NCBI GenBank assembly: GCA_977020255.1
Contig: CDROCS010001673.1
Location: 310,001-374,000 of the forward strand
Length of the DNA: 64,000 nucleotides
Direction of reading: 5' to 3'
DNA from: Obrimoposthia wandeli
Lineage: Eukaryota
This document shows, in pieces, positions 24,492 through 61,737 of this stretch; within the stretch, counting starts at the first letter, position 1, and every line of letters starts with the position of its first letter. The notes under the pieces were generated by a model. The model worked only from the letters and a program-made list of their open reading frames with translations. It was not told the DNA's origin and made no database searches. Both the position numbers and the translations under genes were made by a program.

Positions 24492-24529
24492 GTGTGTACA
24501 TATGATTTTATGCCAGTGTGATGAATGGA

Positions 24530-24830: not shown

Positions 24831-24873
24831 GCGGAGTATCTCGATGAAATCCCACCACTGATAAATTGTGCAG

Positions 24874-33175: not shown

Positions 33176-33439
33176 TTTAAATTACTTGATTTTTTTTTGC
33201 CATTGTCCGTTTAATATAATATGAATATTCAATTTATTTCTTCAAAAATTCATTTTATATGTTAAATAATATTCTTTATCACATTATTGTGGTTTTTATC
33301 AAGTGATTTTAACCTTAAACTATAAAAAATATTTTAATTATAAAGTTAGTTGCTGTACCCCGCCCACTGCATATAACATAAATTTCAAATATAAAGTACT
33401 ATTAAGTTTATTATTTCGAATAGTAAATGTTTTTCGAGT

Positions 33440-34760
33440 TATTTAATTTTGTTTACTAGACATTCGAAAATTTACTTGTAAACTACAATATTTATTTGTT
33501 GTTGTATATATTTAGTTTAAAATGTTGTAAGTTATTACTTTAATATAATTTTCAACAAAAACTTCAAGTAATTTACTTGTAAACTACAATATTTATTTGT
33601 TGTTGTATATATTCAGTTTAAAATGTTGTAAGTTATTACTTTAATATAATATTTCAACAAAAACGTCAAGTAGTTTACTTATTAAACATAAGTTTAATGT
33701 TTTGTACAATAAATTGACTTGTAAACATAATATAATTTGCATATTTTCAATTTAATATATTGTAAGTTATTACTATAATATTACATTACATAAAAAAGTA
33801 ATTGATAGTTTACTATCGTTTACAATAAATTGACTTGTAAACATAATATATTTATGCATATATTCACTTTAATATGTTGTAAGTTATTACTTTATTATAA
33901 TTTTCAACAAAAACTTCAAGTAGTTTACTTGTAAACTACAATATTTATTTGTTGTTGTATATATTCAGTTTAAAATGTTGTAAGTTATTACTTTAATATA
34001 ATTTTCAACAAAAACTTCAAGTAGTTTACTTATTAATCATAATATTAATGATTTGATCAATAAATTGACTTGTAAACATAATATAATTTGCATATTTTCA
34101 ATTTAATATATTGTAAGTTATTACTATAATATTACATTACATAAAAAAAGTAATTGATAGTTTACTATCGTTTACAATAAATTGACTTGTAAACATAATA
34201 TATTTATGCATATATTCACTTTAATATGTTGTAAGTTATTACTTTATTATAATTTTCAACAAAAACTTCAAGTAGTTTACTTATTAAACATAAGTTTAAT
34301 GTTTTGTACAATAAATTGACTTGTAAACATAATTTATTTTGGTATATTTTTCAATTTAATATGTTGTAAGTTATTACTTTAATATAATTTACAACAAAAA
34401 CTTCAAGTAATTTACTTGTAAACTACAATGTTTATGTTGTTGTATATATATTCAGTTTAAAATATTTGAGTTAATAAACTTTAATATAATTTACAACAGA
34501 AATCTTCAAGTAATTTACTTATTAATCCTTTTTAATGATTTGATCAATAAATTGACATAAACATAATATAATTTGAATTTTTTAATTTAAATATATTGTA
34601 AGTTAATACTATAATATTTCATTACATAAAAGTAATTCATAGTTTACTGTCGTTTACAATAAATTGACTTGTAAACATAAATTTGATACAGTATATTTTC
34701 GATTTAATATGTTGTAAGTTATTACTTTAACATAATTTACAACAAAAACTCAAAATGTTA
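33440..34760. repeat. AT-rich tandem array of diverged ~110-125-bp units (AAATTGACTTGTAAACATAA core)
   Basis: The core recurs about 7 times; a short inverted counterpart lies at about 36040-36330. Confidence 0.8.
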
Positions 34761-34826
34761 CTTTATACAAGTATCATGTTGTGGTTGGATTTAGGGTTAT
34801 AATCTGAGCATTGAATATAAAATATA

Positions 34827-34828
<2 letters not shown>

Positions 34829-34891
<63 letters not shown>

Positions 34892-34897
34892 TATATA
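34829..34897. repeat. (TA)n microsatellite
   Basis: Visible directly. Confidence 0.95.
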
Positions 34898-35790
34898 ACA
34901 TTAGCTGCACAGTTATATGTTAAATTAACTTGGTTATTGTTATAACAGTTTTTATTTAAAAAATATATATATAATAATAATAATACAAAACTGATAAAAT
35001 ATATTAAAATGAATATACCATAACTCTGGTTTACCTGATGTTTCGCCAAAACTCTTCAAGATACTCATCATCTAGATTAGCCTTATACCATAATATTCAG
35101 CAATCTCTTCTCTGTTAATCCCATAACTGGGATAAGATTAGTAAGATTTCTCTCACATTCTCTCTGAAATGATAAAGTTAAATTAAAATAATACATTATA
35201 AATAAATATACTCATACCATATAGAATTCCAAGTAAATTATTACAAATTTTTTGTAATCATGAATTTTCCGATATAATTTTACTGAATGCAAGATCACTG
35301 TTTTTAACGGACATAATCATTAAACTTGATGGAGGAATGTTGTCGAATTATAACTACTTTTTCTGCTGTTAGTGCTTTTTTCACCATATTTTCGTAAGGT
35401 AATTTATTTAATTTAAGTTTATAGATAAGCCATTTTTGTTGTTGAACATCAGCATACTTCATAATTTAATTTGAACTTATTTTGAACATATAATAGAGCT
35501 TGTTTGTTTAATATTCTTCTTTGCACCTCCAACTATTAACCAAATTCTAATTAAATACTTTATTTCTTCTTCTTTATTAGAGTGCATAAATTATTTGTCG
35601 TGCTTCAACATCCTGGCAGACATCGTCATACATTTCTAGAAATTGCTGATCGATGATTTCATTCATTTTTCTTCATACTAATTTGTTGTTAATAGAATTA
35701 TTATAATTAATTATGATGTGCTATCAATGAATTATCTATTATTACAATATCCTGTTAATTATAATAAGTATAAAATACATTTACTTTATT

Positions 35791-35877
<87 letters not shown>
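35791..35877. repeat. (TA)n microsatellite
   Basis: Visible directly. Confidence 0.95.
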
Positions 35878-35879
<2 letters not shown>

Positions 35880-36627
35880 AATAATAAGACAAAAAGTAAG
35901 AAAACAATCCTAAATATCATAACAACCAAGATTAACACAGATAATATTAGTTAAGAAATTAATTTATCATTTTGGTCTAAAACAATGAATACCAAATCGC
36001 CTACAATGCATGTATAATTTTTAATTGTCAACTACAGTAAACTATAACATTACTCTTTATTATTACCATTAATAATGCCAATATATTAGTAAACATTTAC
36101 AAAATATAATCTGTTTACAAATTAATTTTATCATACAAATCCTTAAATTATGATTAATAAGTAAACTACTTGAAGTTTATTTATTGCTAAATATATTATG
36201 TTTACAAGTCAATTTATCGTACAAATCATTAATATTATGATTATTAAGTAAACTATTTGAAGTTTTGGTTGTAAATTATATTAAAAGTAATAACTTACAA
36301 CATATTAAAGTGAATATATGCAAATTATATTATGTTTACAAGTAAATTTCCGAATATCTAAACAAAATTAAATAACTCGAAAAAACGACTACTATTCGAA
36401 ATAATAAACTTAATAGTACTTTATGTTGAAATTTATGTTATATGCAGTGGGCGGGGTACAGCAATATATAATTAAATATTTTATAGTTTAAGGTTAAAAT
36501 CACTTGATAAAAACCACAATAATGTGATAAAGAATATTATTTAACATATAAAATGAATTTGCAGAAGAAATAAATTGAATATTCATATATTAAACGGACA
36601 ATGGCAAAAAAATATCAAGTAATTTAA

Positions 36628-39600
36628 AATCAAACTATCGACACTCTTATTTTTAAAGTACATTCGCACTTTAAACCCACTTACTTGTATTGAAATTCTA
36701 TTACTATCAATCACTTGCTCGTCATACTTGCATTACAATCTAACTATAATTTATTCAACAAATCTCATCACAATTTAGCATAGTCTAAATTACTTGCATT
36801 CAATCAAACTATCGACACTCTTATTTTAAGAATTACATTCACTTGCTAAACCCACTTGCCTTGTATGAAATTCATACTATCAATCACTTGCTCCGTCATA
36901 CTTGCATTCAATCTAACTATAATTTATTCAAATACAAAAACTCTATTTTAATTTACTTATAGTCTATTAAATTGCACTTGCCATTCAATCAAACTATCGA
37001 CACTCTTATTTTTAAAATTACATTCACTTGCTAAGCCACCCACTTACTTGTATTGAAAATTCAAACTATCAATCACTTGCTCATAATACTTGCATTCAAT
37101 CTAACTATAATTTATTCAACAAAACTCTATTTTAATTTACTTATAGTCTAAATTACACTTGCATTCAATCAAACTATCGACACTCTTATTTTTTAAAAAT
37201 TACATTCACTTGCTAAACATACTTGTATTGAAAATTCAAACTATCAATCACTTGCTCGTCATACTTGCATTCAATCTAACTATTTTATAATCTCTATATT
37301 CTTAACAAAATCTCTATTCGACCTTAATTTACTTATAGTCAAGCTATCAATCACTTGTCAATCATTACACTTATAATTTATTCAACAAAATCTCTATTTT
37401 AATTTACTTATAGTCTACAATTACACTTTACATTCAATCAAACTATCGACACTCTTATTTTTAAAAATTACATTCACTTGCTAAACACACATACATGTAT
37501 GTTGAAAATTCAAACTATCAATCACTTGCTCGTCCATACTTACATTCAATCTAACTATCTCATTTATTCAATAAAGATCTCTATTTACAATTTTCTTATC
37601 GTCTAAATTACACTTGCATTCAATCAAACTATCGACACTCTTATTTTAAAAATTACATTCACTTGCTAAACCCACTTACTTGTATTGAAATTCATACTAT
37701 CAATCACTTGCTCGTCATTACTTGCATTCAATCTAACTATAATTTATTCAACAAAAACTCTATTTTAATTTACTTATAGTCTAAATTACACTTGCATTCA
37801 ATCAAACTATCGACACTCTTATTTTTAAAAATTACATTCACTTGCTAAACACACATACTTGTATTGAAAATTCAAACTATCAATCACTTGCTCGTCATAC
37901 TTGCATTCAATCTAACTATAATTTATTCAACAAAAACTCTATTTTAATTTACTTATAGTCTAAATTACACTTGCATTCAATCAAACTATCGACACTCTTA
38001 TTTTAAAAATTACATTCACTTGCTAAACCCACTTACTTGTATTGAAAATTCAAACTATCAATCACTTGCTCGTCATACTTGCATTCAATCTAACTATAAT
38101 TTATTCAACAAAATCTCTATTTTAATTTACTTATAGTCTAAATTACACTTGCATTCAATCAAACTATCGACACTCTTATTTTTAAATTACATTCACTTGC
38201 TAAACACACTTACTTGTATTGAAAATTCAAACTATCAATCACTTGCTCGTCATACTTGCATTCAATCTAACTATAATTTATTCAACAAAATCTCTATTTT
38301 AATTTACTTATAGTCTAAATTACACTTGCATTCAATCAAACTATCGACACTCTTATTTTTTTAAAAAATTACATTCACTTGCTAAACACACATACTTGTA
38401 TTGAAAATTCAAACTATCAATCACTTGCTCGTCATACTTGCATTCAATCTAACTATAATTTATTCAACAAAAACTCTATTTTAATTTACTTATAGTCTAA
38501 ATTACACTTGCATTCAATCAAACTATCGACACTCTTATTTTAAAAATTACATTCACTTGCTAAACCCACTTACTTGTATTGAAAATTCAAACTATCAATC
38601 ACTTGCTCGTCATACTTGCATTCAATCTAACTATAATTTATTCAACAAAATCTCTATTTTTTAATTTACTTATAGTCTAAATTACACTTGCATTCAATCA
38701 AACTATCGACACTCTTATTTTTAAAAATTACATTCACTTGCTAAACACACATACTTGTATTGAAAATTCAAACTATCAATCACTTGCTCGTCATACTTGC
38801 ATTCAATCTAACTATAATTTATTCAACAAAATCTCTATTTTAATTTACTTATAGTCTAAATTACACTTGCATTCAATCAAACTATCGACACTCTTATTTT
38901 AAAAATTACATTCACTTGCTAAACCCACTTACTTGTATTGAAAATTCAAACTATCAATCACTTGCTCGTCATACTTGCATTCAATCTAACTATAATTTAT
39001 TCAACAAAATCTCTATTTTAATTTACTTATAGTCTAAATTACACTTGCATTCAATCAAACTATCGACACTCTTATTTTTAAAAATTACATTCACTTGCTA
39101 AACACACATACTTGTATTGAAAATTCAAACTATCAATCACTTGCTCGTCATACTTGCATTCAATCTAACTATAATTTATTCAACAAAATCTCTATTTTAA
39201 TTTACTTATAGTCTAAATTACACTTGCATTCAATCAAACTATCGACACTCTTATTTTAAAAATTACATTCACTTGCTAAACCCACTTACTTGTATTGAAA
39301 ATTCAAACTATCAATCACTTGCTCGTCATACTTGCATTCAATCTAACTATAATTTATTCAACAAAATCTCTATTTTAATTTACTTATAGTCTAAATTACA
39401 CTTGCATTCAATCAAACTATCGACACTCTTATTTTTAAAAATTACATTCACTTGCTAAGACACTTACTTGTATTGAAAATTCAAACTATCAATCACTTGC
39501 TCGTCATACTTGCATTCAATCTAACTATAATTTATTCAACAAAATCTCTATTTTAATTTACTTATAGTCTAAATTACACTTGCATTCAATCAAACTATCG

Positions 39601-41990
39601 ACACTCTTATTTTAAAAATTACATTCACTTGCTAAACCCACTTACTTGTATTGAAAATTCAAACTATCAATCACTTGCTCGTCATACTTGCATTCAATCT
39701 AACTATAATTTATTCAACAAAATCTCTATTTTAATTTACTTATAGTCTAAATTACACTTGCATTCAATCAAACTATCGACACTCTTATTTTTAAAAATTA
39801 CATTCACTTGCTAAACCCACTTACTTGTATTGAAAATTCAAACTATCAATCACTTGCTCGTCATACTTGCATTCAATCTAACTATAATTTATTCAACAAA
39901 ATCTCTATTTTAATTTACTTATAGTCTAAATTACACTTGCATTCAATCAAACTATCGACACTCTTATTTTAAAAATTACATTCACTTGCTAAACCCACTT
40001 ACTTGTATTGAAAATTCAAACTATCAATCACTTGCTCGTCATACTTGCATTCAATCTAACTATAATTTATTCAACAAAATCTCTATTTTAATTTACTTAT
40101 AGTCTAAATTACACTTGCATTCAATCAAACTATCGACACTCTTATTTTAAAAATTACATTCACTTGCTAAACCCACTTACTTGTATTGAAAATTCAAACT
40201 ATCAATCACTTGCTCGTCATACTTGCATTCAATCTAACTATAATTTATTCAACAAAAACTCTATTTTAATTTACTTATAGTCTAAATTACACTTGCATTC
40301 AATCAAACTATCGACACTCTTATTTTAAAAAATTACATTCACTTGCTAAACCCACTTACTTGTATTGAAAATTCAACTCTTATTTAAAAATTACTATCAA
40401 TCACTTCAATCACTTGCTCGTCATACTTGCATTCAATCTAACTATAATTTATTCAACAAAAACTCTATTTTAATTTACTTATAGTCTAAATTACACTTGC
40501 ATTCAATCAAACTATCGACACTCTTATTTTAAAAAATTACATTCACTTGCTAAACCCACTTACTTGTATTGAAAATTCAAACTATCAATCACTTGCTCGT
40601 CATACTTGCATTCAATCTAACTATAATTTATTCAACAAAATCTCTATTTTAATTTACTTATAGTCTAAATTACACTTGCATTCAATCAAACTATCGACAC
40701 TCTTATTTTTAAAAATTACATTCACTTGCTAAACCCACTTACTTGTATTGAAAATTCAAACTATCAATCACTTGCTCGTCATACTTGCATTCAATCTAAC
40801 TATAATTTATTCAACAAAATCTCTATTTTAATTTACTTATAGTCTAAATTACACTTGCATTCAATCAAACTATCGACACTCTTATTTTAAAAAATTACAT
40901 TCACTTGCTAAACCCACTTACTTGTATTGAAAATTCAAACTATCAATCACTTGCTCGTCATCCTTGCATTCAATCTAACTATAATTTATTCAACAAAAAC
41001 TCTATTTTAATTTACTTATAGTCTAAATTACACTTGCATTCAATCAAACTATCGACACTCTTATTTTAAAAATTACATTCACTTGCTAAACCCACTTACT
41101 TGTATTGAAAATTCAAACTATCAATCACTTGCTCGTCATACTTGCATTCAATCTAACTATAATTTATTCAACAAAATCTCTATTTTAATTTACTTATAGT
41201 CTAAATTACACTTGCATTCAATCAAACTATCGACACTCTTATTTTAAAAAATTACATTCACTTGCTAAACCCACTTACTTGTATTGAAAATTCAAACTAT
41301 CAATCACTTGCTCGTCATACTTGCATTCAATCTAACTATAATTTATTCAACAAAAACTCTATTTTAATTTACTTATAGTCTAAATTACACTTGCATTCAA
41401 TCAAACTATCGACACTCTTATTTTAAAAATTATATTCACTTGCTAAACCCACTTACTTGTATTGAAAATTCAAACTATCAATCACTTGCTCGTCATCCTT
41501 GCATTCAATCTAACTATAATTTATTCAACAAAATCTCTATTTTAATTTACTTATAGTCTAAATTACACTTGCATTCAATCAAACTATCGACACTCTTATT
41601 TTAAAAATTACATTCACTTGCTAAACCCACTTACTTGTATTGAAAATTCAAACTATCAATCACTTGCTCGTCATCCTTGCATTCAATCTAACTATAATTT
41701 ATTCAACAAAATCTCTATTTTAATTTACTTATAGTCTAAATTACACTTGCATTCAATCAAACTATCGACACTCTTATTTTAAAAAATTACATTCACTTGC
41801 TAAACCCACTTACTTGTATTGAAAATTCAAACTATCAATCACTTGCTCGTCATCCTTGCATTCAATCTAACTATAATTTATTCAACAAAATCTCTATTTT
41901 AATTTACTTATAGTCTAAATTACACTTGCATTCAATCAAACTATCGACACTCTTATTTTTAAAATTACATTCACTTGCTAAGACTCTTAC
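36628..41990 (+). repeat. 178-180-bp satellite array, about 30 copies (right arm)
   Basis: ATCAAACTATCGACACTC recurs at 37801, 37980, 38158... Confidence 0.97.
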
Positions 41991-42970
41991 TTGTAAATGA
42001 CATTCATACTTGCATGCATAATTTTATTCATTTACATTCATTCTACCTCTCATTTATTCAAACTCTCATTCAAATATTCATATAAATTAATATTTTTTAC
42101 TAATTTTCTATTAATTCCGTTGTAACTTAGTCGTTGAAACGAAAAGAATGTATAAAGAATGGACTTTCTTACTTTGTAAATGTTATTCACTTAAGTTTGA
42201 AGATGATATTATGAAATTACATAATAAATGTGTTTAATTTTGTATTATTCTCTGACTTCTTTCTTATTTTATTTTTTTATTTTAATATATAATTGAAGTT
42301 ATTTAAAGAAATTTTATCATAATTCTATAAATGTGAAAGCCTAGGAAAAACTTTGATCTAAATTTCACATAAAATAGTATGTGTGTGATTACGTAATACA
42401 TTCATTAACTTATAAGAGTGAACTTTAGTTTAAATTTCACATAAAATAGTGTATGTGTGTGTTAAAAACCACATTTCTTAATTGATAAGTGTGAACTTTA
42501 TCCTAAATTTTCACATAAAATAGTGTGTGTATGATTACGTCATACATTCTTAATTGTTAAGTGTGAACTTTATCATAAATTTTCATTATGGACTAGATCA
42601 CAAAAAAGAAGGGTGGAGACTAAGCCACTTGATCCTTTGAATTAGTGGTTAACCAAAAATAAGGGTGGAGACTAGACCACAAAAAGAAGGGTGGAGACTA
42701 GACCACAAAAAGAAGGGTGGAGACTAGATCACTAAAAGAAGGGTGGAGACTAAGCCAATTGACCCTTTCATAGTGGTATATCACAAAAAGAAGGGTGGAG
42801 ACTAAGCCAATTGACCCTTTCATAGTGGTATATCACAAAAAGAAGGGTGGAGACTAAGCCAATTGACCCTTTAAACTATGGACAATCATAGATTATAGCC
42901 AAAGGAAGGGTGGAGTCTAGATCACTTGACCCCTCCCCGCTACCCCTCCCCTCCCCGCCTCCCGCCTCCT

Positions 42971-48616: not shown

Positions 48617-51274
48617 AAAAATATAATACTGATATCCCAGTTAATGTAACAAATGAAGAAAATTTTAAAAATCCTTTTGTAGATGTAATTTATAGGAGCA
48701 AAAATGAGGGGACTCAGGTCAACTTAATTTTGCACGAACATAATAAAAAATTCCATTATGCTGCAATTGCCAATTAAGATCGTCTTCTAAATTTAGATAA
48801 TGGAGCCTTACCGGTTAGGATAAGATGTAAGTGGTGTCATAGATGTTTGCATGGATTCCGATCCGAGCTCTCTTACAGCAAACATCTGACATTATGTTCA
48901 CTGAATCCTGATGACAATACGCTATACATCATGCCTAAGGATAAGGATTTAAAATTCAGGGATTGGGCAAAATGCATACCCGTGGAATTCAGGGTGCATG
49001 CAGATTTTGAGTCAATTTTAGCATTGCACGACCAGTATGAAAGCATTCACCTACCGGCTTCGGCAGGACTACTATTCTTAGGCCCTATTATTACACAATA
49101 TCATAAATTTTCCGGTCCAAATTGTATTTTAAATTTTATGTTAAAATTAGAAGAATTAGGAACAACAATTGTCAAACCGTGGTATGATCTCAATGATCAT
49201 GACAGGCATAGACTGGGTTAATTTTAATTCTTGTAGATTATGTTATTTGTGTGGAACCCAGTCTAAGTTAGTCAGATATCACGATCATGTTACGGGGCGA
49301 TACTTGGGAGCGGCGTGCAACCTCTGTAACCTTGGCCGTCGTCTCCCTAAAAAACCACGAATTCCCATCGTGTTTCATAACCTCAAAGGATATGATTTGC
49401 ATCATATACTTAAATACGCGTTGGGTACATTAAGCTCTTGGGAAATTTCATGTATACCTCAAACTTCAGAGAAATATTTATCTTTAACTGCATATACTGA
49501 ATTCTGCAGTTTAAGATTCATAGATTCTCTGCAGTTTTTGAGCGGGTCTTTAAAAAATTTAACGGCATCTTTAAATGCATGGCCAATTACACAGTCAGTG
49601 TTCCCAGCTTCGGTTAACGATAAGGGGATTTTTCCGTATAAATTTGCGAAAACTTTCGCAGATTTAGAAAATACAACTGAAATCCCACCCATAACTGAAT
49701 TTGAGGGTGTAAGTCTTCAAGACTATAATGAGGCCCGTACATTTTGGGTGAATACTTGTCAAAATCTTCTTGAATATATGCTTTATTATATGAAGTTAGA
49801 CATTTATCTTTTAGCTGATGTTTTTGAATCCTTTCGTGTAATGTCTTTAGCAGAAGATGGGCTAGATCCCATGCATTTCTTTAGTTTACCTGGTCTTTCA
49901 TGGGCAACAGCAATAAAAACTCTTAAAATTAATATCGAGTTACTGCAAGATCCCGCGATGTATCAAATGTATGATTATGGTATACGCGGTGGAATGACTT
50001 TTGTCAACAAACATCATGTTGTCAAAAATCAATCCACGGAGATTCTGTACATCGATATTAATAATTTGTATGGGTGGGCGCTTACTCAACCTCTACCTCA
50101 TGCTAACTTTAAGTGGGTTTATGATGTGGATCAGTTGAATAAGTTGATGACAGACTTGGCTACTGTTGATACAGTTTCATCCGACGTCGGCTATTTGGTT
50201 GAGGTGGACATAAAAATTCCTCTCAATGTGCATGATAAATTAGATGATCTTCCAGTAGCGCCTGTTCATCAATGCCCACCTAATTCAAAGGTTAAGAAAT
50301 TATTGTTAACCCATGAAGACAAGTTGAATTATGTTGTGCATTGGCGGCTTCTTCAATTCTACTTAAAGTTGGGAGCGAAAGTTACTCGAATTCATCGTGC
50401 TATAAGCTTCAGTCAAAATTTTGTGTTTAAAGACTATATTGAGAAGAATTCAAGAAAACGTAATTTGGCCACTAGCAAATTCGATCGAGATTTTTACATG
50501 TTAAAAAGTAATAGTATCTTTGGAAAAACTGTAGAGGACTTGCGGAAACGTATTTGTCTACGATTTTGCAATGATGAGCGTAAACTAATAACATATACTA
50601 GCAAGTACAACTTCAAGCGTAGTTTTACAATTGCAGATGACTTGGTAGCAGTGTTATTAGGAAAACAGAGTATTTGTCTCGATCGACCGAGTTATATAGG
50701 TCAAACGGTTTTAGACATTTCTAAACTCAGAATGTATGAGCTTCAATACATAGAATTGGAGAAATACCGTCAAGAATTTAATTGTGAGATCAAAATCGCG
50801 GCAGGGGACACTGACTCTTTCTTTTTAGAATGTAGGAATGTTAGTTTAAATAATCAATTATTACCAGCAATGTTTAGGGACAACTTACTAGATACCCATA
50901 AATATCCCGCTAACCATCCTCAACACTCTATGAGTTTAAAGGACATTATCGGGAAATTTAAGGATGAAAGCGAGGGACAGGTTTCGTATGATGATTGTAT
51001 TTTCCTACGCCCTAAATGCTACAGTTTACATGCATCTAATAATACATGTTCAATGAGAGCAAATGCTGTGGGAAGAAACAATCTTACACATGAGGCCTAC
51101 CGGAAAGTTTATGATACTGGGTGTATTGAAAGCGTTGAGCAAACTAGATTTATTTCAAAAGCCCATCAACTGTATTCCCATAAATCAACCAAAATCGCTT
51201 TGAGTAGTAATGACGACAAGCGCTTTTGGGTAGAAAAGAACGCTAGCCTGGCTTATGGACACTTCAAAATTTAA
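48199..51274 (+). pseudogene. polB: Protein-primed family B DNA polymerase (pPolB) with an endonuclease VII-like C/H insert; N-terminal third frameshifted
   Basis: SSGWTLVRI; HYAAI; C.RCL.GF...H...C; RVHADFES; CYLCG...YHDHVTGRYLGAACNLCNL; VFHNLKGYD; YIDINNLYG; KSNSIFGK; AGDTDS; RPKCY. Confidence 0.95.
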
Positions 51275-51540: not shown

Positions 51541-52822
51541 TTATAACACACTAATCGTTTTGCAACGATAACCATAAAAAACATAAATGTCCACAGTTTC
51601 TCGTCGCAGGATCCTGATATTGTATCTTGTTGTAAAATACTCTTCTTCGTCCTTTTTGAATAGTTGAAACAAGTTTGTGTGGATAATACATTGCAAGTGA
51701 ATCAAATTAGATCCATCCTTGAGTAGTTGACATTGGTTTATATCAAAGTCTGGTGCCAAAACAAATGTGAAGAAGGGGCAGCTTCTTTTAAAGTCAGTGA
51801 AATAAATACCATTGTTTATATTTTTATTTAGTTGGCCCAAATTCCGAATAATATATTGCGTATAAGCCAAAGCATAAGCATTACCTTCGAAATCTGTTTT
51901 ATATGTTTCGCGATAATCAGTATTTCTTGAAAGTGTCACTGAACCTACATTAAGATTGTCAAATTGAGTTGCATCTGTCGTATAATTTCCTAGATACTTT
52001 GCAGTTTTTTGAAAAGAAATTAAAATGAACTTCGGTAATCTTACATCACCAAAAATTTGATCCTTATTAAAAGCTTGTGTACCCGTACCTAAAAAGTAGG
52101 ATATAAGTTTAGTTTCTCTAATAGGATAACAAGCATTGTTTTTTTCCATTCCTATATTATGTGCCATTAAAACTGATTGCTCGGTTTTAACTCTTCGGAC
52201 ATACAATTTTGCATCCAAAATATCAAATCTAGGTTTTAGTCTGTGTTCTTATGAAAGAAAAATTCCCCTTATTACGTTTCAAACGAAGATGTACATTAAC
52301 ACCGGGAATTAAATATTTCGGTTGTTCAAAGAAATTCAATCTCAAAGACCCACACATTTCGTAAGCTTTAGAACCTGCAATCCATTCTTTTCGAGTTGCG
52401 ACCGTTTTATCATAACCAATGGTTGCCAAATTAGTATTTTGAGTATCAGTACTATAATTCAAAATACTTTCAATCAAAGCTTTATGAGGATAGGAAGAAT
52501 TACCACCTTCAATTTTGACATTTTTAAGAGTAACAATGGCATCACTAAATAAAAAATTAAAGAGATAATTTACAGGTGTTACATCTGCATTTTCATCTAA
52601 ATTAGTACCATCCCGATTTAATACTTTTATTTGAACATAAAGCAATGTATCATTCAAATCTAAATACTCGCTATTGGAACCATTAATATTAAATTCTAAA
52701 TCGATTAAAGTGGTTCCTGAAACAGAGTTAACTAGAAATATTTCTTCAAAGGAAGCATTATCTACAACTACTTGTGGATGTGGTTTATCAAAAATACACA
52801 ATTCGGTTTTGGTGCATCTCAT
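51541..52822 (-). pseudogene. Polinton major capsid protein (double jelly-roll, PY/hexon-like), frameshifted near 52225
   Basis: CTKTELCIFD.P.PQVVV...LEFNINGSNSEYLDLNDTLLYVQIKV; GSLRLNFFEQPKYLIPGVNVHLRLKRN; FFTFVLAPD. Confidence 0.9.
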
Positions 52823-53196
52823 TTTGCAAATATTGTTCCTTCAACTTTCTTACGTTTGTTTATATTGATTTTTTGCTTCTTTTTACTTTTAAATCCACTA
52901 CCTCCTTGGCTTCTATTTGATTTACGCTTTCTAATCAAATTAGCAACTTCAGGTAAAACATTATCAAGTTCATCAAGCGCATGCTTCTTAAAAGTTGGTA
53001 TTAGTTTGTTGTCCTTTGATGAAAGGTAATCCTTTCCTAATTTTGATATAAATCGCCCGAGTCTCTTTAAAAGAGGAAAGGCAAATCTACCTAATGTTCT
53101 AAGCCAGCCAAATCCATATTGTTTACCAACAAAATATGGTAATTCTCCACCTTGTTGGCTTTGACTATAAGCTTCAATTATTGCTGGATTCGCCAT
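52819..53196 (-). CDS. Conserved small basic Polinton virion protein upstream of MCP
   Basis: QQGGELPYFVGKQYGFGWLRTLGRFAFPLLKRLG: a QxGG...GxG-amphipathic pattern of the kind typically found just upstream of Polinton MCP; intact ORF. Confidence 0.7.
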   Translation of the reverse strand: MANPAIIEAYSQSQQGGELPYFVGKQYGFGWLRTLGRFAFPLLKRLGRFISKLGKDYLSSKDNKLIPTFKKHALDELDNVLPEVANLIRKRKSNRSQGGSGFKSKKKQKININKRKKVEGTIFAK

Positions 53197-54239
53197 TTTG
53201 TTTTCTTAAATGTATTGTTAAATTTGTCTTGGCCCCGTACGTGAAATCTATTAGTTGTCCGGAATCATCTCTAATATTTACTTCAATATTGTTTATAGAA
53301 AAGAGAGAAACTGGAAGATACATTGGTTGATCTATACACATACCGACAGTGTCCCATCTCTAGTTTCATTTTTAGATATCCATATTGTTCTCAAAAGTGG
53401 AACTCGCTGTCCTCCTACAAGCGTTGGTTCTATTAAATTAGTATAAATATATAAATGTTTAACAGCATTTAAATGTTTTGCCTTATTTTTAGCTTTTATG
53501 GTTTTTATTGTATGGGTTTCAAAGGTATTTTTGTTTAAACCAAGGTTTTAAGCGAGTTTATCATGAAATAAAACCTGTATTATATTGCTCTTTACTGTAA
53601 ACGTTATTTTACCATTTTTTAATGTTACACATATATCGAAATATTCACTACATTCCTTCTGTATTAATTTACAGAAATTCACTTCACTATCTTATTTATA
53701 ATCTTTTGAAAATATTTTCAGTTCCACTACATACTTTGGTCTCGTTTCAACTAAAAAAACCCTTTTATTACTCTATCAGGAACATTTTTTAACGATTTAG
53801 ATGAGGCTATATCAGATCTCTTCATACCTACTACATGTCTACTGTCAAAACCGAATTGAAGAGCTTCTCTATCAGATCCAAATATAATTTGAATAGGTTT
53901 TGAAAAATGTTTAAGTCGATTTTTAAATCTGACTTTGATTTTTTAATATATTACTTTCACTTCTTTATTTATACAATTGTAATAGAATTTTCCTTTACTA
54001 TCAAACCCGATCACAACTTCAATTGATTTTTCATGATCAACTTCTTTTGTAAACGAAATATGTGAGTTTTTTCTGATAGTAATTGGAGAATAATAAAAGG
54101 AAAATTCTGTTAAAGCCGCTTCCCATTCTCCTTGGAGATTTATAGGATTTTCCCAATCGATAATAAAGCTACTAGCGTAATTATCTGGTTGAGTCTTCGG
54201 ACATCCGTTACTAGGTAAAACCATATATATAGACTTCAT
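53197..54239 (-). pseudogene. Polinton minor capsid protein (penton, PX), disrupted
   Basis: N-terminus YMVLPSN...SSFIIDWENPINLQGEWEAALTEFSF; C-terminus HLYIYTNLIEPTLVGGQRVPLLR...PMYLPV...NIEVNIRDDSGQLIDF. Confidence 0.88.
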
Positions 54240-54253: not shown

Positions 54254-55302
54254 TCATATCCAAGTTGGATCTGAATAACCATGCCATTTAACATAGTATT
54301 GTTTATGTTTACAAGCACCCTTAGATTTTAATATTTTTTGAATACGGAAAACGCTTAGTTTATTTGATATTACTTGTAGTTCTTGCTCGTGAAATTTACC
54401 GTGAACGATATCATTGTCAGCATCTTTAATAGTATACATTATTGGATTACTCTTTTGATCAATTTTATTTATACAAAATATTTCATCGCTCTAATTCTGA
54501 TCAAAGATTTAATAAATGGAGTAGAGCTAATTTTCTAAATTCGGACATATTCGCTTTTCTTATATTTAGCTTTTTTAATATTTTCTTTTTTATTCCTGTT
54601 CATCCAAATATCCATAGAATTTTTATTAGTAACATCAACAGGTCTCATTCCCTTGATACCTCTATGTTCCGAGTGATTATATGCATGTATTATTTTAGGT
54701 AAAACTTGGATCCATTTTTTATTTCCTTCTTTTGTGAAATACCTTTTTATTCGATCTCTTAAAGTACGATTAAATCTTTATACTACTGCTGCTTTATACT
54801 GTGAAAACACAGAGTAGTGATTTATATTATTTTGTTTAAATAAAGATTGAACTTGTTTATTATAAAATTCTTTTCCTAAATCAGTTTGCCCATTTTGTGG
54901 AATGTCCTCTTTTAATATTTCTTTAATGACTTCAAGCATAGCTATTGAAGACTTTGCTTTAACTGGAATTGCACGAGCAAACCTGCTAAATACATCAATA
55001 CATGTTAAAATATATCGATATCCCTTATTAATGGAAGAATATGGGATCATCTCCATCAAATCCATTTGCCATAAATTATTAGGGCCGCTGGTTTTGTAAG
55101 CTCTAGTTGGAAACCTTCTTCTCATCGGCTTGTTCAGACTGTAGGATAACTGGTCGCTCAGCCATTTCTGCGTTTTCTTGTAATTTTGATTTGTTCTTTT
55201 TGCTAATTTTGAAACTCCTGTGTAGCCAATTGGATCTCTTCCATTACAACAATTTGAATAGAAAGAAAATTTAAATTTAGGTAAAGAAGGGTTAGCACCC
55301 AT
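54254..55302 (-). pseudogene. Polinton retroviral-like integrase with C-terminal chromodomain; stop at 54778 and a frameshift
   Basis: LWQMDL...YRYILTCIDVFSRFA...TDLGKEFYN...KAAVV*RFNRTL; FRIQKILKSKG...YYVKWHGY. Confidence 0.92.
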
Positions 55303-55330
55303 ATCTTTAACTGATTTTATAAATAATTGT

Positions 55331-55660
55331 TTATGAACGTGTCGCAGCTATAATACTACTGATAATTGAAGCAACAACTGGAATAACAGCCCCTATGAAA
55401 CCACCATTATGTTTAAGAATAATATTTCGTTTCCTTTTCTTACTTTTTACATTAGCAATATCTAGAAGAGTTTTTCTATATTTCTTTAATAAATTTTTCC
55501 GATTTCTAACTTTTACTCGACCCAAAACTATATTATACAAAACTTCCAATAAATCATCTACAACAAAGGATGGAAATGCTTTAAGAATAATCATTCTCTT
55601 ATGAGAAGAGGCTTTAACTAAAGCTTTAAAATAGGGTATGCTTCTTTGTATTTTCTTCAT
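55331..55660 (-). CDS. Conserved Polinton small protein with C-terminal GGF-hydrophobic segment (reminiscent of adenoviral pX)
   Basis: Basic N-terminus; LKHNGGFIGAVIPVVASIISSII; intact ORF between ATPase and integrase. Confidence 0.65.
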   Translation of the reverse strand: MKKIQRSIPYFKALVKASSHKRMIILKAFPSFVVDDLLEVLYNIVLGRVKVRNRKNLLKKYRKTLLDIANVKSKKRKRNIILKHNGGFIGAVIPVVASIISSIIAATRS

Positions 55661-55835
55661 TTTAATAAAAAAGGTTCAATTTGAATATTGTTTATATTCG
55701 AAGCCATTTACGTTTTTTCTATTTCTAACTACAGATTTGATTAATTTTTGCACTTCTTTTTTCTTAATGATTTTTTTTGATTTCTTAGGCTTTGCTTTAC
55801 GTTTTACTATCAACTTCGTAAAAAGCATTGTAAAT

Positions 55836-56483
55836 TTATCTTTTATAATTGTTCTCTATTTGTTTATAAACAGTTACTCCCTTAGAATTAAATATGTCTG
55901 TTAAAACACGTAAATCATCTGTGCAAGCTTGTGTAAAGTCAATCAATATATATCCATGTGCTTGTTTAGCAGCATCATGGAATGAATCAACTAGAAAGTT
56001 CTTATTTTGGAAAAACGCCTGTCTGGCCACAAAATCTACAACTGTTTGATCTCTAGGATTTTTAAATAAAACTAAGTAATGTACATTAAGATTTCTTGTT
56101 CTATGGTGACCTCCTTGGTGAAAAAGATTTTGAGTGATAAATATAACTGTTACTTCACGATGTCTTACAATCTTTGTAAATAAATTATTAAAGTCCGATT
56201 CCTTATTAGCTTCTTGATACAATTCATCAATTATTATTACATCTTCTTTTTTCAATCTTTCACACCAATTTGCATCAAATCCTTCAATAAATTGTATTCC
56301 CTTCAACTTGCAAACTTCTGTTTTGGTTAATCCGCTTTCCCCTCCTCTACCATGAAGCCAATAAATATTTTTGAAATTAGATTTGAAAAGAGATTCATTT
56401 TGCAACAATTTACATACGAAATGTGTCTTTCCACTTCCACTGGGACCAACTATTTGAAATACAGCATTATTTTTTAGCTCCAT
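55836..56483 (-). CDS. Genome-packaging ATPase (A32/FtsK-HerA type)
   Basis: Walker A GPSGSGKT, Walker B VIIIDE, RHREVTVIFITQNLF, YLVLFKNPRD; intact 215-aa ORF. Confidence 0.93.
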   Translation of the reverse strand: MELKNNAVFQIVGPSGSGKTHFVCKLLQNESLFKSNFKNIYWLHGRGGESGLTKTEVCKLKGIQFIEGFDANWCERLKKEDVIIIDELYQEANKESDFNNLFTKIVRHREVTVIFITQNLFHQGGHHRTRNLNVHYLVLFKNPRDQTVVDFVARQAFFQNKNFLVDSFHDAAKQAHGYILIDFTQACTDDLRVLTDIFNSKGVTVYKQIENNYKR

Positions 56484-56520: not shown

Positions 56521-56778
56521 TCATAGAAGTTTCCTTATTGAAATGTACAATGTTAGAGCTATTGTAGATGAAATACAAAAATTAATTAATGAATATTTGG
56601 CTATAATTTTATTTATTTGTGTACGATTTCTAAATTCTTGAATAACGTGTGATCTAACCAATATTTCAATGTTATCTCTTGTTATATCATTATTTTTTAA
56701 TTCTGATAAAATTTCTTTACCCCTAATTTTTCCAGAAAATATTTCGTCGGCAAGATTAGTATTATTCATTTGAAACAA
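56521..56778 (-). CDS. Hypothetical 85-aa Polinton protein
   Basis: ORF co-oriented between the TBP-like gene and the ATPase; no motif recognised. Confidence 0.45.
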   Translation of the reverse strand: MFQMNNTNLADEIFSGKIRGKEILSELKNNDITRDNIEILVRSHVIQEFRNRTQINKIIAKYSLINFCISSTIALTLYISIRKLL

Positions 56779-56797
56779 TACGTTTAAACGGGTTTGT

Positions 56798-57319
56798 TTA
56801 TAGAAAAGATAACAAGATGTAATTAGATATATATTCTAAAATCAAATCAACTATGTCTGGATAATCAAAATTTTTCAATCCCAATATCATAATTTTACCA
56901 CTGGAAAATATATTTACACATAGCGGTTTAAACTTCAAATAACTGAGAGTAGGAAAAATTTCTGGTTCAAACATGCATTCTTATTTCATTTTCTCTGCAG
57001 TTTTTAAAAGATTTATCTTTTTCCCAAGATTAGCTAAAATCGTGATTGATTGTATTGCAGTGATTCGAATTCCAAATGGTAAATTGAACCCAAGTATTGG
57101 TATTTTGCATCCCATAACACGACAATTTCCTAAAAGAATTCAATATGAAAATAAAGTAATAAAACTAACCTGTAGGAAAAATAACAACTGTAAAATTGTC
57201 AAACTTTTCCACATATTGTCAAACTTTTCCACATATTGTCTCGGCTTCCATTCATTGAATGGTAAGTACGAAACATCATCTTCTGTTCTACCTTTATAAT
57301 TTATATTTATGAGTTTCAT
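56798..57319 (-). pseudogene. TATA-binding-protein (TBP)-like gene with a 40-nt intron (57130-57169); 20-bp duplication and one TAA
   Basis: Reconstructed: MKLININYKG...FTVVIFPTG|NCRVMGCK...AIQSITILANLGKKINL...MK*ECMFEPEIFPTLSYLKFKPLCVNIFSSGKIMILGLK. This gives two TBP-type repeats (compare LIFSSGKMVCTGAK and YEPELFPGLIYRM.KP..VLLIFVSGKVVLTGAK). Confidence 0.8.
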
Positions 57320-57434
57320 TAGACTAAAATTGTATTCTATAAAATCTTCTTTATATATGTCTGAACCTGCTTTTTTATTGCACGTTTCTTGTAATTATCT
57401 TGCAAACCTATTATAATTGGATGATATATTTCTT

Positions 57435-57538
57435 CCAATCAAATTTGATTTTTAATATTGATTTAGTCCAATCAAATTCAATGCTTTAGTTATATTAACC
57501 AATGAGATTTATGTCTTTGTTACAAATTAGTATAAAAG
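57435..57538 (+). promoter_or_regulatory. Candidate Pol II promoter: CCAAT x3 (57435, 57468, 57499) plus TATAAAAG (57531)
   Basis: Lies in the divergent gap between the TBP-like gene and RING gene 1. Confidence 0.5.
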
Positions 57539-57665
57539 CATACACCATTGGAAGTGTAAATTAGTGTGTAAAAAGATGTAGAATATACTGTAGAAATTCA
57601 GTGTAAAAGCAATTGTAGAAATATGTAGAAATAATATAGAAATTAATTGTCAAAATGTATTTAGA

Positions 57666-57900
57666 ATGTCTGAGGAATGCCCAATATGTTTAGAAGATAT
57701 ACCAGAACGAAGAGCAAGACCCAATGCCGGCAACCACATATACCATGAGGAATGTTTATCAAAATGGATCATAACTTATGGAGAGTTACCCCATCCAACA
57801 TATCCTCGCTGCCCTGTATGCAGAAGACAACTCACAAAGTACATAATAATGGAACCAAACCAAGAAGACGTAGATGTACAAGTGGAATTTTGTTGGAAAA
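57666..57900 (+). CDS. RING-H2 finger protein 1 (third ligand Cys replaced by Gly)
   Basis: CPICLED...NAGNHIYHEECLSKW...CPVCRR. Confidence 0.8.
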
Positions 57901-58023
57901 ACCTGAGAGTGTTGGTGTTTTTTCTGTGTACCAAAACGACAGGACTCAGTCACTTTTGTGTAAACATCACGCAACAACCAACCACCAACCGAGCCCAAGC
58001 TCAACACCACCTCTCCCACAGCA

Positions 58024-58254
58024 ATGCCTGTAGAATGTTCCATCTGCTACGAGACAATCCAGGACTGGCACGCAAATTCTAACAACTGCGGCCACAAATT
58101 CCACATCCAATGCCTCGAGACATAGATACCCATTGTCATTAGCACCAGCCCTGTCGACTTCCCATCATGCCCAATGTGCAGGTCAACCTTCTCGATGTAC
58201 CAAATCATCAACCGAGAACGCAGCCATGCAGAGGTACCCATCGTACACTGCTAG
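58024..58254 (+). pseudogene. RING-H2 finger protein 2 (TAG at the conserved Trp position)
   Basis: MPVECSICYETIQDWHANSNNCGHKFHIQCLET*IPIV...CPMCRST; not in the ORF track. Confidence 0.85.
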
Positions 58255-58720
58255 AAGGACATATGCGACTGCTGGAGTTCCTTCTGCGTAGATGACAGAC
58301 GAACGGACCAACCCAACAACCAACAATAATTGGAGGTAACTTTCTGACAAAAATGTGTCATCATGAATTAACCCTGTGTATCGCATACCACGATAAAATA
58401 TCGTACACTGCTAGAAGGACATATGCGACTGCTGGAGTTCCTTCTGCGTAGATGACTGACGAACGGACAAACCCAACAACCAACAATAATTGGAGGTAAC
58501 TTTCTGACAAAAATATGTCATCATGAATTAACCCTGTGTATCGCATACCACGATAAAATATCGTACACTGCTAGAAGGACATATGCGACTGCTGGAGTTC
58601 CTTCTGCGTAGATGACAGACGAACGGACCAACCCAACAACCAACAATAATTGGAGGTAACTTTCTGACAAAAATGTGTCATCATGAATTAACCCTGTGTA
58701 TCGCATACCACGATAAATAT
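58241..58720. repeat. 160-bp tandem triplication
   Basis: TCGTACACTGCTAGAAGG at 58241, 58401 and 58561. Confidence 0.95.
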
Positions 58721-58956: not shown

Positions 58957-59447
58957 ATGAATCATGTCACACAGTGGCCCACTTCAATCTGCCTAAGACG
59001 TCTCCGACACCTGACGGTGGTACCTCAAGGGTGCATGCACCGCTTCCATGAGGGCTGCCTCTACATATGGGCGAGATCGAGACTCTACGCCACCCAACAT
59101 GTCCCCTGTGTCGGAACCCGATCCAACATTGGAACGTCTCCCTGTGTGGTCAGATAGTAGGACAAGGATCGCCAGTAAGCTGTATTGGTGGAGACCAATG
59201 TCAGTGCTTCGTCTGTCCGCAACGACGCCGGATCAGACGGCTACAGGCACGAAAGAGGTGGTGGTCCTCACAAAATCGCGGCCTCATGCCGTTCGGGGTT
59301 ACCCCCATCTACCCTCAATACCAACGGCTAGGTGATGGACCACAAATGCCGTCATGGAGCACCTACTCCCCAGCATCTCCCACGCTGCCAGTGGAGCAGG
59401 TGGACCAGTATTTGAACAGTTTAATCGACGTTATTGACCTTATTTGA
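58957..59447 (+). pseudogene. RING-H2 finger protein 3, frameshifted at about 59070-59090, with C-terminal VIDL motif
   Basis: SICLRR...GCMHRFHEGCLYIW / HPTCPLCRNPI...RRRIRRLQARKR...LNSLIDVIDLI*. Confidence 0.8.
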
Positions 59448-59652: not shown

Positions 59653-61737
59653 TGTTAGAATTAGGAAACTAAAACTAAAATAAATGAAGAACTATTTATA
59701 TTAAAAATTCTACTTTGAAAATCAAAGTTAAAAATAAATTTATATTAAAATATAAATTAAAAATGAAATGATTTTGGATAATCAGAATTAGATAAATTAG
59801 GATCTTGAAAGGTCATGCGGAAAAGTATAAAACAAGGTTAAATCTATGTAAAAGAGACCCCAAAAAATTAGAAATTAGAAATTGTAAAAGCACGAAAAAT
59901 CGATTGATGAAAAACAGAAATTAATTGAATATAGTGAGAAATAAACATCTGTCGAGAAACCCATTAGTCTCATCAGCGGAGAAAATTATTCATCGTGGGG
60001 AATCAACAACTGTGGAAAACGCCATTAGTTACAGTACATCAACGACGGAGAAAATCAATTATCATTGTCGGCCGGTTCTCATGATGAGTTGTTATAAATA
60101 GGAATTGAATTGATTCCCCATTTAGTTACAGAATTTCACGTGACAAAATACAGAATTCCACGCGACAAATAAACTGGATTCCACGCGACAGATAAACAGG
60201 ATTCCACGCTGTCGCTGTTTATTGAATTTTTATAAACATAATTCCACACGACAGATAAACAGGATTCAACGCGACAGATAAACAGAATTCCACGCGGCAT
60301 CCAATTCCAACAGGCATCCACGCGAAGACGCGAACCAACAAAGCTAAGCGGAGAGATAAAGGTTCTAAATGATTTGAATTGTTCTAAATCAATTGAATTA
60401 TCCCAAAGTATTTGAATTGTTCTAAATCAATTGAATTATCCCAAAGTATTTGAATTGTTCTAAATCATTTGAATGTTCCCAAATTATTTGAATTGTACTG
60501 AATAAATTGAATTATCCTAAATTAATTGAATTGTTCTAAATCATTTGAATTATCCTAAGTTATTTGAATTGTTCTAAATCAATTGAATTATCCCAAAGTA
60601 TTTGAATTGTTCTAAATCATTTGAGTTATCCCAAATTATTTGAATTGTTCTAAATCAATTGAATTATCCCAAATCATTTGAGTTATCCCAAATTATTTGA
60701 ATTGTTCTAAATTGTTTGAATTATTCTAAGGTATTTGAACTATCCTAAATTATTTGAATTGTTCTGAATCAATTGAATTATCCTAAATTAATTGAATTGT
60801 TCTAAATCATTTGAGTTATCCTAAATTATTTGAATTGTTCTAAATCATTTGAGTTATCCTAAATTATTTGAATTGTTCTAAATCAATTGAATTATCCTAA
60901 ATTATTTGAATTGTTCTAACTCAATTGAATTGTTCTAACTCAATTGAATTGTTCTAAATCAATTGAATTGTTCTAAATAATTTAAATTATCTTAAATTGT
61001 TTGAATTATCGTAGCTTATTTGAATTGTCGTGAATTATTTAATTATCGTAATTACGACTGAATTGATTGAATTTCGGATTGTAACTTTTGAATTCAAGTA
61101 TCATATTTGAATTGCATATCTATTTAAATTCAAATATTGAATTACTAAGTGTAAAAGGATATTGCAAGAAGTTCGGTGTAAAAGGAGTAACATTAGTAGA
61201 GGGTCATCTCACTTTCCAGAGTGTTGGAATTAACATAGTTTATTTGTAGACGTGCTTACTCGTATATTTTTTTAGAAAATTTTAGTTGTGTTTCATAAAT
61301 AAAGTGTTTCCTAAAAGACCACTAGTTGATCTATAAGCCACCAACCGTATAGACGTAAACAACACTAATATATAGTCGATGGACAACCACGTGACGGTAT
61401 TCCAAGCACTGGGGTATTTGAGGATTGTCGCTTGGCTCCGGCTTTTTTCATACCGATCTACGTTGCTAACCAGACTTTTCCTGAATGTCACGCCTAATTC
61501 CTAAGTCTACATAACACACCATTATTTTTGGACCCTACTAGCTATTCTGTGAACACAACTCCTTGAGCACACCACAACACAATAGTACAAAAAACCTTCT
61601 TATTTGAGACTAGAATTAAGTAAGATAAACGCAGGTAGCCCACATCCATCTGTAATCCCTATCGCTACAGAACTCACGTCGGGGGCCTCCATACGAGGAT
61701 CTACTAGAATAAAGAGTTTCAATTAGAAACCTCAACA
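59653..61737 (+). mobile_element. Family A LTR (2085 bp) with ~23-bp (60140-60330) and 19/38-bp (60373-61050) minisatellites
   Basis: TGTTAGAATTAGG...CCTCAACA; GGATCTTGAAAGGTCAT and GAACTCACGTCGGGGGCC blocks; flanks GGTA/CTAT do not match. Confidence 0.85.

Follow-up and report, generated by a model that had tools for sequence, protein, structure and literature searches.

A TATA-binding-protein-like gene carried by a Polinton lineage and a candidate YATAAACA promoter box ahead of its structural genes

Does a Polinton-type element carry a TATA-binding protein (TBP) of its own and, if so, what might such a protein do for it? The question was raised by a window of 64,000 nucleotides from Obrimoposthia wandeli (contig CDROCS010001673.1, positions 310,001 to 374,000), the whole stretch of DNA analysed here. 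In it, an earlier note made from the letters alone had reconstructed a TBP-like gene on the minus strand by removing a 20-bp duplication and splicing a 40-nt intron. The gene, the duplication and the intron were all present; an additional in-frame stop at 56983-56981 had been missed. The start codon is at 57319 and the terminal stop at 56800-56798, and the donor GT at 57169 and the acceptor AG ending at 57130 are 40 nt apart.

57170..57319, minus strand: exon 1 of the TBP-like gene, coding for a reduced N-lobe that includes the L5.1 Phe; the window copy is broken here
57201..57240, minus strand: 20-bp exact tandem duplication (lesion 1, a frameshift), read from the sequence
57130..57169, minus strand: 40-nt GT-AG intron, phase 1, deduced from DNA only
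56798..57129, minus strand: exon 2, the end of the N-lobe without helix H2 and the whole C-lobe; PF00352, E 6.4e-11
56981..56983, minus strand: in-frame stop (lesion 2), between the two motifs quoted in the earlier note

Because of the extra in-frame stop, the window copy cannot encode a TBP protein, and it was shown to be a decayed insertion that is no longer protein-coding. Exon 2 alone, with X at its stop, matched PF00352 above the curated cut-off (42.4 versus 22.9 bits), and both TFIIB glutamates and two Phe were placed in it by the residue map. Both peptides that had been quoted as two TBP repeats were found, but the repeats are unequal: Pfam recognised a single stretch in the window gene, the C-lobe, and the N-lobe is shortened.

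A DNA search of the 1.35-Gb genome returned 41 matches from the best 40 of 4,594 candidates. The family copies, the window itself apart, were 87-93% identical to the window gene. In pairwise comparison the lesion-2 stop was common to none of the 19 other copies, and the 20-bp duplication was absent in 15 of them, with other length differences at that place in 4. Donor GT and acceptor AG were each kept in 18/19 copies, and length changes within the 40-nt intron stretch occurred in 13/19. Stops were present in 8 of 23 ungapped exon-2 copies, whose drift was almost neutral (dN/dS 0.72, dS 0.078, 253 pairs), as is expected after insertion.

The TBP-like gene had been described as heading a minus-strand run of ATPase, integrase and capsid genes. 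This order was confirmed, with the capsid labels putative, and the ATPase follows TBP in 18 of the 19 copies of the window family.

56521..56769, minus strand: 82-aa ORF, no Pfam family over the cut-off
55836..56483, minus strand: A32-type packaging ATPase (PF04665, E 8.5e-6, 25.9 bits against a cut-off of 22.8)
55331..55660, minus strand: basic ORF of 109-114 aa with a weak likeness to adenovirus protein X (PF05829, E 0.015, below the cut-off; a lead only)
54535..55302, minus strand: retroviral-type integrase, in pieces (PF00665, E 4.3e-12)
53943..54239, minus strand: putative minor capsid piece, labelled from its position and the size of its homologues; no family match
51541..52822, minus strand: putative major capsid, two pieces (PF21738, E 0.0048, below the cut-off)
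48778..51274, plus strand: protein-primed PolB, pPolB (PF03175, E 3e-26)

Homologues of the putative major capsid were single ORFs of 403-424 aa; no whole capsid homologue had a Pfam match at E 0.001, and the capsid labels are leads. The window element shares pPolB, the retroviral-type integrase and the A32-type ATPase with Polintons, Mavericks and adintoviruses, and its putative capsids would be a further likeness. Its relatives also carry the adenovirus-type protease and PLA2-like genes known from Polintons and Mavericks, with PF00770 (the protease) matching on the related contigs L054 and L058; in a search of this genome neither PF00770 nor its control gave a match. No terminal repeats were found, nor any long inverted repeat in 43,000-64,000, where the element has decayed and other repeats border it.

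The gene is not confined to the window family. A genome search with PF00352 gave at least 150 scored matches among 19,768 candidates. The ten best rows were host-type TBP genes on four contigs, and all of the 20 further loci fetched matched window exon 2 at 48-89%. At least five Polinton-type families in this genome (A-E, A being that of the window) carry the TBP gene. The family B protein is about 51% identical to that of the window and its gene lacks the intron; that of family C is about 52% identical, its gene adjoining a dual-specificity phosphatase and a BIR gene, and the family C ATPase lies outside the fetched flank. In family D, TBP was within 1.5 kb of the ATPase in 30/30 fetched loci. 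Families C and D have an intron candidate of 38-39 nt at the same position, which is the best support for the intron (itself deduced from DNA), and in families B and E a single frame runs through. Contigs of one sample showed no joint at the intron among the joints listed, a result without bearing on expression. The intron thus appears to be family-specific and is not the main point, given that 63/80 metagenomic loci span both lobes in one frame.

Other genes were noted near TBP genes of either type. The family C locus (L047:296-3036) carries domains PF00782 (dual-specificity phosphatase) and PF00653 (BIR/IAP) beside TBP, and L075 has a ubiquitin-conjugating enzyme domain, PF00179. Two near-identical, intronless and divergent host-type TBP paralogues on contigs C60 and C1092 (L024 and L025) form a long branch and match PF00352 in two stretches (E 1.5e-41); Polinton fragments lie downstream of L025. 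On contig C238, two TBP genes stand head to head.

The fold was assessed on natural homologues about 49% identical to exon 2, rather than on the window's own protein. With exon 2 as the query, two proteins of 50% identity were found; the model of one of these, P0001 (157 aa), had a pLDDT of 96. When P0001 was compared with the PDB, TBP was the top match (E 2e-9), and all 39 listed matches at E ≤0.001 were TBP chains or TBP fusions. On yeast TBP, 150 of 157 residues were aligned (Z 13.4, rmsd 2.6), the next other fold reaching Z 6.7. The bare saddle spans the whole model, with no extra domains. P0080, from a second clade, was likewise modelled as a two-lobe saddle (pLDDT 95). The saddle fold predicted in the earlier note was accordingly found in the natural homologues.

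Residues were counted in 69 phmmer-derived proteins, full-length matches chosen by hand; only these were counted, since the search patterns used for metagenomic loci themselves contain the Glu, Phe and Asn positions. Three of the DNA-intercalating Phe, which the earlier note had proposed to check, were kept in 69/69, but the column of the first stirrup Phe was gapped in 69/69; a replacement aromatic may be present in the shortened stirrup loop. The glutamates C.L3.2 and C.L3.4 were present in 67/69 and 68/69, respectively. The Asn of the first C-lobe strand was replaced by Ser or Thr in 69/69, and the residue two before the last Phe, which we take to be L205 in yeast numbering, was Asn in 69/69, versus Leu in 15/24 ordinary TBPs. 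In PMC1636458, L205 is among the three positions changed in TBPm3, a mutant of altered specificity, and lies close to box base pair 2. The H2 region had 21 residues in the window gene, compared to 34-35 in 21/24 ordinary TBPs, and no helix was seen there in the P0001 model. The second clade (P0080) retains a 15-residue H2 helix without the basic signature columns, so the loss of H2 looks stepwise. Ravarani 2020 (PMC7221094) assigns the basic patch for TFIIA, TAF1, Mot1 and Brf1/2 to N.L2 and N.H2, whereas TFIIB is contacted by the two glutamates.

Element TBPs are 21-32% identical to ordinary TBPs (at least 100 columns compared). They share with cellular TBP the saddle fold, three of the four intercalating Phe, the Asn of the first N-lobe strand and the C-stirrup glutamates. 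They differ in lacking the first stirrup Phe, in an H2 that is shortened (second clade) or absent (window clade), and in the changes of C-lobe Asn to Ser/Thr and of Leu to Asn. The element protein belongs to the TBP family but is not a canonical TBP.

The search with P0001 returned 665 proteins at E 0.001 and 98 at 1e-10 (50%-identity representatives), and the best matches were compact proteins, mostly without a name or automatically named TBP. The element family comprises proteins of 144-175 aa with about 50% identity among members and 21-24% identity to the host paralogues; PF00352 scored 56-64 bits on the homologues. A metagenome scan confirmed 137 stretches, of which 80 were examined. A core Polinton gene was matched on 38/80 of these loci (29 of the 35 that were at least 3 kb long), and Pfam confirmed pPolB, integrase, protease and PLA2-like genes on several contigs. 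Synteny with Polinton genes was therefore found both in this genome and elsewhere. Among pairs at 60-95% identity with unsaturated dS, dN/dS was 0.06-0.48, mostly 0.1-0.3; above 95% identity, the values were noisy (0.05-1.4). The dN/dS analysis proposed in the earlier note thus revealed family-wide purifying selection on the element TBP, with family A of the window near neutral (0.72).

In a quick tree of 75 rows (one in three of the 69 family proteins and 21 of 63 metagenomic ORFs), 46 of 47 family rows fell on one side of a branch with SH-aLRT 98, the exception being contig L132. A careful tree of 36 rows (LG+G4), which leaves out L132 and the longest branches, placed 18/18 family rows in one clade with support of 100/100. 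Grouping the window exon with two host TBPs was rejected (p-AU 6e-40). The trees are unrooted, and the comparison set consisted of two-lobe TBPs from the protein search and the host loci, without a named giant-virus set. The element TBP is a distinct family and no host retrocopy. A recent host retrocopy was one of three outcomes named in the earlier note as refuting its reading, the others being the lack of a TBP-fold match and of synteny with Polinton genes elsewhere; none of the three was observed.

An archaeal origin was considered and not adopted. PDB sequence matches were slightly stronger for archaeal (E 1e-22) than for eukaryotic TBPs (1e-20 to 1e-18), and the first Atlas cluster was labelled archaeal on one record only; both are too weak to assign an origin. 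Queries of IMG/VR with P0001 and the family alignment gave no family member in a Polinton context; the single P0001 match was a chance match on a picorna-like contig, and scans with ATPase and pPolB gave only virophage-like contigs. One of the IMG/VR contigs, L209 (14.2 kb), carries pPolB-like, ATPase and integrase-like ORFs together with three proteins of collagen-like repeats and a major capsid of the Sputnik type (PF21915, PF22031), and has no TBP match. Another locus, L053:3431-12739, is giant-virus-like; it encodes a heliorhodopsin (PF18761) and, flanked by PolB and ribonucleotide reductase, a two-lobe TBP of the ordinary kind. Its TBP falls outside the element family in the tree.

By listing the 70 nt ahead of each gene, the motif ATAAAC was first seen. 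After removal of near-duplicates, it was present within 70 nt before the ATPase in 23/25 cases (shuffled mean 1.7, maximum 7), and it preceded the putative minor capsid in 9/11, the putative major capsid in 6/9 and the basic ORF in 5/7. The counts were 8/18 before the integrase, 1/6 before a 128-aa ORF and 0/19 before TBP. The profile is Y-ATAAAC-A, and 35/43 boxes lie 31-52 nt ahead of the ATG. Before structural genes the box never occurs on the reverse strand. The base preceding it is never A (0/43), and for that reason its reading as a poly(A) signal is disfavoured. The box is found in two clades, between which ATPase identity is about 38%, and in both of them position 7 is held as C and position 1 as a pyrimidine (C or T). 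Canonical TATAAAR before the ATPase was at the chance level (2/25 versus 2.1 shuffled). The window element has one box on the plus strand and nine on the minus strand. Six of the nine are located 33-42 nt before an ATG opening at least 50 codons, and three are not.

56795..56802, minus strand: YATAAACA box 33 nt upstream of the 82-aa ORF; it shares bases with the TBP stop codon
56510..56517, minus strand: YATAAACA box 34 nt before the ATPase start, present in 17/18 family copies
55861..55868, minus strand: YATAAACA box 40 nt upstream of a 50-aa ORF, within the 3' end of the ATPase
55689..55696, minus strand: YATAAACA box 36 nt upstream of the basic ORF (109 aa)
55328..55335, minus strand: YATAAACA box 33 nt before the ATG of the integrase frame
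54300..54307, minus strand: YATAAACA box 68 nt upstream of the putative minor capsid piece
53290..53297, minus strand: YATAAACA box 101 nt before a 125-aa ORF, an atypical distance
52857..52864, minus strand: YATAAACA box 42 nt upstream of the putative major capsid gene
51813..51820, minus strand: YATAAACA box within the frame of the putative capsid, not followed by a long ORF; unexplained

The integrase frame at 55302 opens with Met-Gly directly behind a box, and close relatives start alike. This start presumably resembles a myristoylation signal, which would fit a packaged integrase.

The promoter of the TBP gene itself is of another kind.

57350..57357, minus strand: TATA box of the canonical TATAWAWR type, 38 nt upstream of the start codon; a candidate for an early promoter that host TBP reads
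57416..57503, minus strand: CCAAT-type boxes (ATTGG starting at 57503, 57472 and 57439, CCAAT at 57420); candidate host-factor sites

TATAWAWR was found within 60 nt before the TBP start in 17/19 copies and at 35-38 nt in the four families checked. Since the 33-42 nt of the YATAAACA boxes match this distance, the box sits where a TATA box sits. Each of the 19 family copies has 3-5 CCAAT-type sites, a feature seen in the window family only; before metagenomic TBP genes there were 10 such sites versus 8.8 in shuffled sequence, which is no enrichment, and the boxes were dropped as a general early signal. The region 57435-57538, which had been proposed for a DNA-binding assay, contains three ATTGG boxes and no YATAAAC box, and is therefore more likely to be read by host factors. 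By position, YATAAACA lies before the ATPase and the putative capsid genes and not before TBP, as would a dedicated late box, for which it is a candidate.

Elements without TBP were used as a control. The box preceded the ATPase in 1/30 loci of a TBP-less family of this genome, versus 17/18 and 29/30 in TBP-carrying families; the control is a single distant and more decayed lineage with an estimated ATPase start, and its lack of TBP was checked in the 1.5 kb around each of 30 ATPases and along a single 12-kb stretch. No close TBP-less relative of the TBP-carrying elements was found. The TBP-less family (L170, L211-L242) has a different A32 ATPase, with at least 203 matches; one of its copies abuts a fragment of the window family on contig C3352. 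A-rich coding strands alone give a strand bias of the motif (0.44 versus 0.04 per kb in the control family). On eight long contigs, the box occurred within 70 nt before the first ATG in 28 of 61 other plus-strand ORFs and was missing in 33, and it was present at 1/3 pPolB starts. Distant TBP-less IMG/VR contigs carry one or two boxes each (L209 one in 14 kb, L165 two in 17 kb). One in L165 lies 10 nt before the ATPase start, and that of L167 is inside the ATPase frame; the three contigs are too remote to serve as a control.

The exception in the quick tree, L132:234-4116, is a Polinton contig with the same gene order and a more ordinary TBP, which keeps the first stirrup Phe, both first-strand Asn and a full-length H2 region. 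No YATAAAC box was found before its six downstream ORFs. TTTAC occurs 13-45 nt before four of the six, and it is not enriched overall (12 per strand). L132 possibly represents a second TBP capture, or an older state with another box.

We favour, with a probability of roughly 0.6, the reading that this Polinton lineage encodes a compact TBP as a late-gene activator, in an early-to-late switch that uses host TFIIB. Early on, as the promoter sequences suggest, host TBP would transcribe the element TBP gene from its normal TATA box. The element protein, the fold of which was seen in homologues, would then bind the minor groove of YATAAACA, which lies as far upstream of the ATPase, integrase, putative capsid and basic core-like protein genes as a TATA box would. 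The DNA face of the protein is altered where the box departs from TATAWAWR, and a natural family TBP is expected to prefer YATAAACA over TATAAAAG. The C-lobe of TBP lies at the 5' end of the box, consistent with passages of PMC1636458. TBP inserts Phe at box positions 2 and 8, according to passages of PMC12236790. Suggestively, the lost N-lobe Phe would face the 3' end of the box, where the odd C sits. The conserved C-lobe stirrup glutamates would recruit host TFIIB and hence host Pol II. Without H2, the loss of which was seen in the model, a window-clade TBP would be blind to TFIIA, TAF1, Mot1 and Brf1; in this way it would escape host control and be confined to Pol II. The suggestion in the earlier note that an element TBP redirects host Pol II to late or capsid promoters has gained a candidate DNA site in YATAAACA and is supported. 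Its alternative, a decoy for host TBP partners, is weakened, as the surface for TFIIA, TAF1, Mot1 and Brf1 is the part that has been lost.

Several other readings were weighed against this one. Since TATAAACA is one base off TATAWAWR, host TBP might read the box unaided; it would then be a weak TATA variant, the element TBP would only boost transcription or free host TBP, and box and TBP gene would travel together by shared descent. The start-codon distance like that of a true TATA box (33-42 versus 35-38 nt) agrees with this, as do the few and distant controls. We nonetheless consider it unlikely, because C7 and C/T1 are fixed across two clades with ATPases only about 38% identical, TATAAAR before the ATPase is at chance (2/25 versus 2.1), the DNA face of the element TBP carries fixed changes, and L132, with its more ordinary TBP, lacks the box before six downstream ORFs. 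Little probability is given to a two- or multi-component complex, in which the element TBP works with an element partner (a divergent TFIIB or a small ORF) instead of host TFIIB. Most known viral TBPs are accompanied by a viral TFIIB, according to the available part of PMC7221094, and many element ORFs have no family on contigs that are incomplete. However, both glutamates are kept in at least 97% of the family, compared to about 40% for C.L3.2 in known viral TBPs, and the ORFs adjoining TBP vary between families. TFIIB (PF00382) had no match among 80 ORFs of 20 incomplete contigs, and the 29 candidates found genome-wide, against 19,768-30,059 for element genes, are not at element copy number, although a very divergent TFIIB could escape this search. 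No host TFIIB in one open frame was found.

The TBP might also act as a repressor or decoy, occupying host or element promoters or soaking up TFIIB, and so bring about host shutdown or element latency. A protein that keeps the TFIIB face and most DNA-contact Phe and has lost the activator face would fit a dominant-negative role too, and other host-modulating genes (RING, BIR, dual-specificity phosphatase) are found nearby. A decoy for N-lobe partners is impossible, because their surface is gone, and a box before the structural genes and not before TBP fits an activation cascade better; we regard this explanation as improbable. A passenger role, that is, a captured host TBP copy or retrocopy without a function in the element, is highly improbable. 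The window copy has two lesions and its family drifts near-neutrally (dN/dS 0.72), but selection is purifying family-wide, the clade is separate (100/100; AU p 6e-40), and TBP is present in five families of this genome and many metagenomic elements. For the family as a whole the passenger reading is refuted, and it holds only in the sense that the window insertion is dead.

Late-gene activation by an element TBP has a partial parallel in herpesviruses, whose TBP mimic has a TBP fold, recognises a box in viral late promoters and works through host Pol II (PMC7498053 and PMC12529657). The Polinton TBP would resemble it by analogy, with a virus-type TBP fold and a late-gene box that it is predicted to bind. 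The mimics of beta- and gammaherpesviruses are KSHV ORF24, EBV BcRF1 and CMV UL87. BcRF1 was a weak fold match to the element TBP (E 3e-3). According to PMC12529657, ORF24 is large and built of several domains; it contacts the Pol II CTD, has no TFIIB glutamates and, in a model, collides with TFIIB. The Polinton TBP, in contrast, is a bare saddle of 144-175 aa without extra domains, and its glutamates are kept. The herpesvirus mimic needs five more viral proteins, according to part of PMC7498053; ORFs of the element without annotation could be TBP partners.

Most TBP-carrying giant viruses and mirusviruses have their own RNA polymerase. In the Polinton elements, unlike in giant viruses, no TFIIB or polymerase gene was found on the incomplete contigs. 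The best match in BFVD was a Heterosigma akashiwo virus TBP (E 1.4e-8, 17% identity). Nucleocytoviricota and mirusvirus TBPs share the two-lobe fold, and their N-lobe regulator signature is not conserved; known viral TBPs keep C.L3.2 in about 40% and nearly always occur with a viral TFIIB (both from part of PMC7221094).

The earlier note knew of no description of a TBP in a Polinton. No analysis was found, but in Starrett 2021 (PMC8502044) TBP appears as a label in the Fig. 5 legend, its one occurrence in the main text; it is a label only, from which neither the element nor membership in the family described here is readable. The main text of Krupovic 2024 (PMC11161782) contained no TBP, TATA or transcription, and that of Ravarani 2020 (PMC7221094) had no mention of Polintons. 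In literature from which subscription journals were mostly outside the scope, no paper on the Polinton TBP, its family or the YATAAACA box was found.

The most specific form of the favoured reading is a single-gene cascade, in which a TBP reduced to the minimum, its DNA face reshaped and its H2 deleted, recognises YATAAACA and connects directly to host TFIIB and Pol II; we put it at slightly below even odds. If true, it would represent a third viral TBP design, unlike the TBP-TFIIB pair of giant viruses and the multi-protein complex of herpesviruses, as well as a natural orthogonal TBP-promoter pair. It would also be a sign of virion-gene expression in the nucleus without a helper virus. Polinton particles have not been seen so far, according to part of Barreat and Katzourakis (PMC8097293), and the autonomy of Polintons as viruses and the timing of their virion genes are questions on which a conserved TBP and box bear. 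Moreover, a TBP that has dropped the regulatory helix yet kept the TFIIB face is informative about the least that a TBP requires. In this host, the elements are very numerous (19,768 TBP, 30,059 ATPase and 24,441 pPolB candidates, which are first-look candidates and not copy numbers), and the TBP and box would thus be spread through the genome.

Further features were observed in the window. RING ORFs are located at 57594-58082 and 59052-59447. Three 160-bp tandem copies occupy 58240-58717 within the variable end of the element, and a 19/38-bp minisatellite follows just past that end (60210-61100). A large foldback extends over 31618-42950, with arms of several hundred bases at 98-99% complementarity that enclose a tandem array of units of about 178 bp with a strong GC skew (37,000-42,000).
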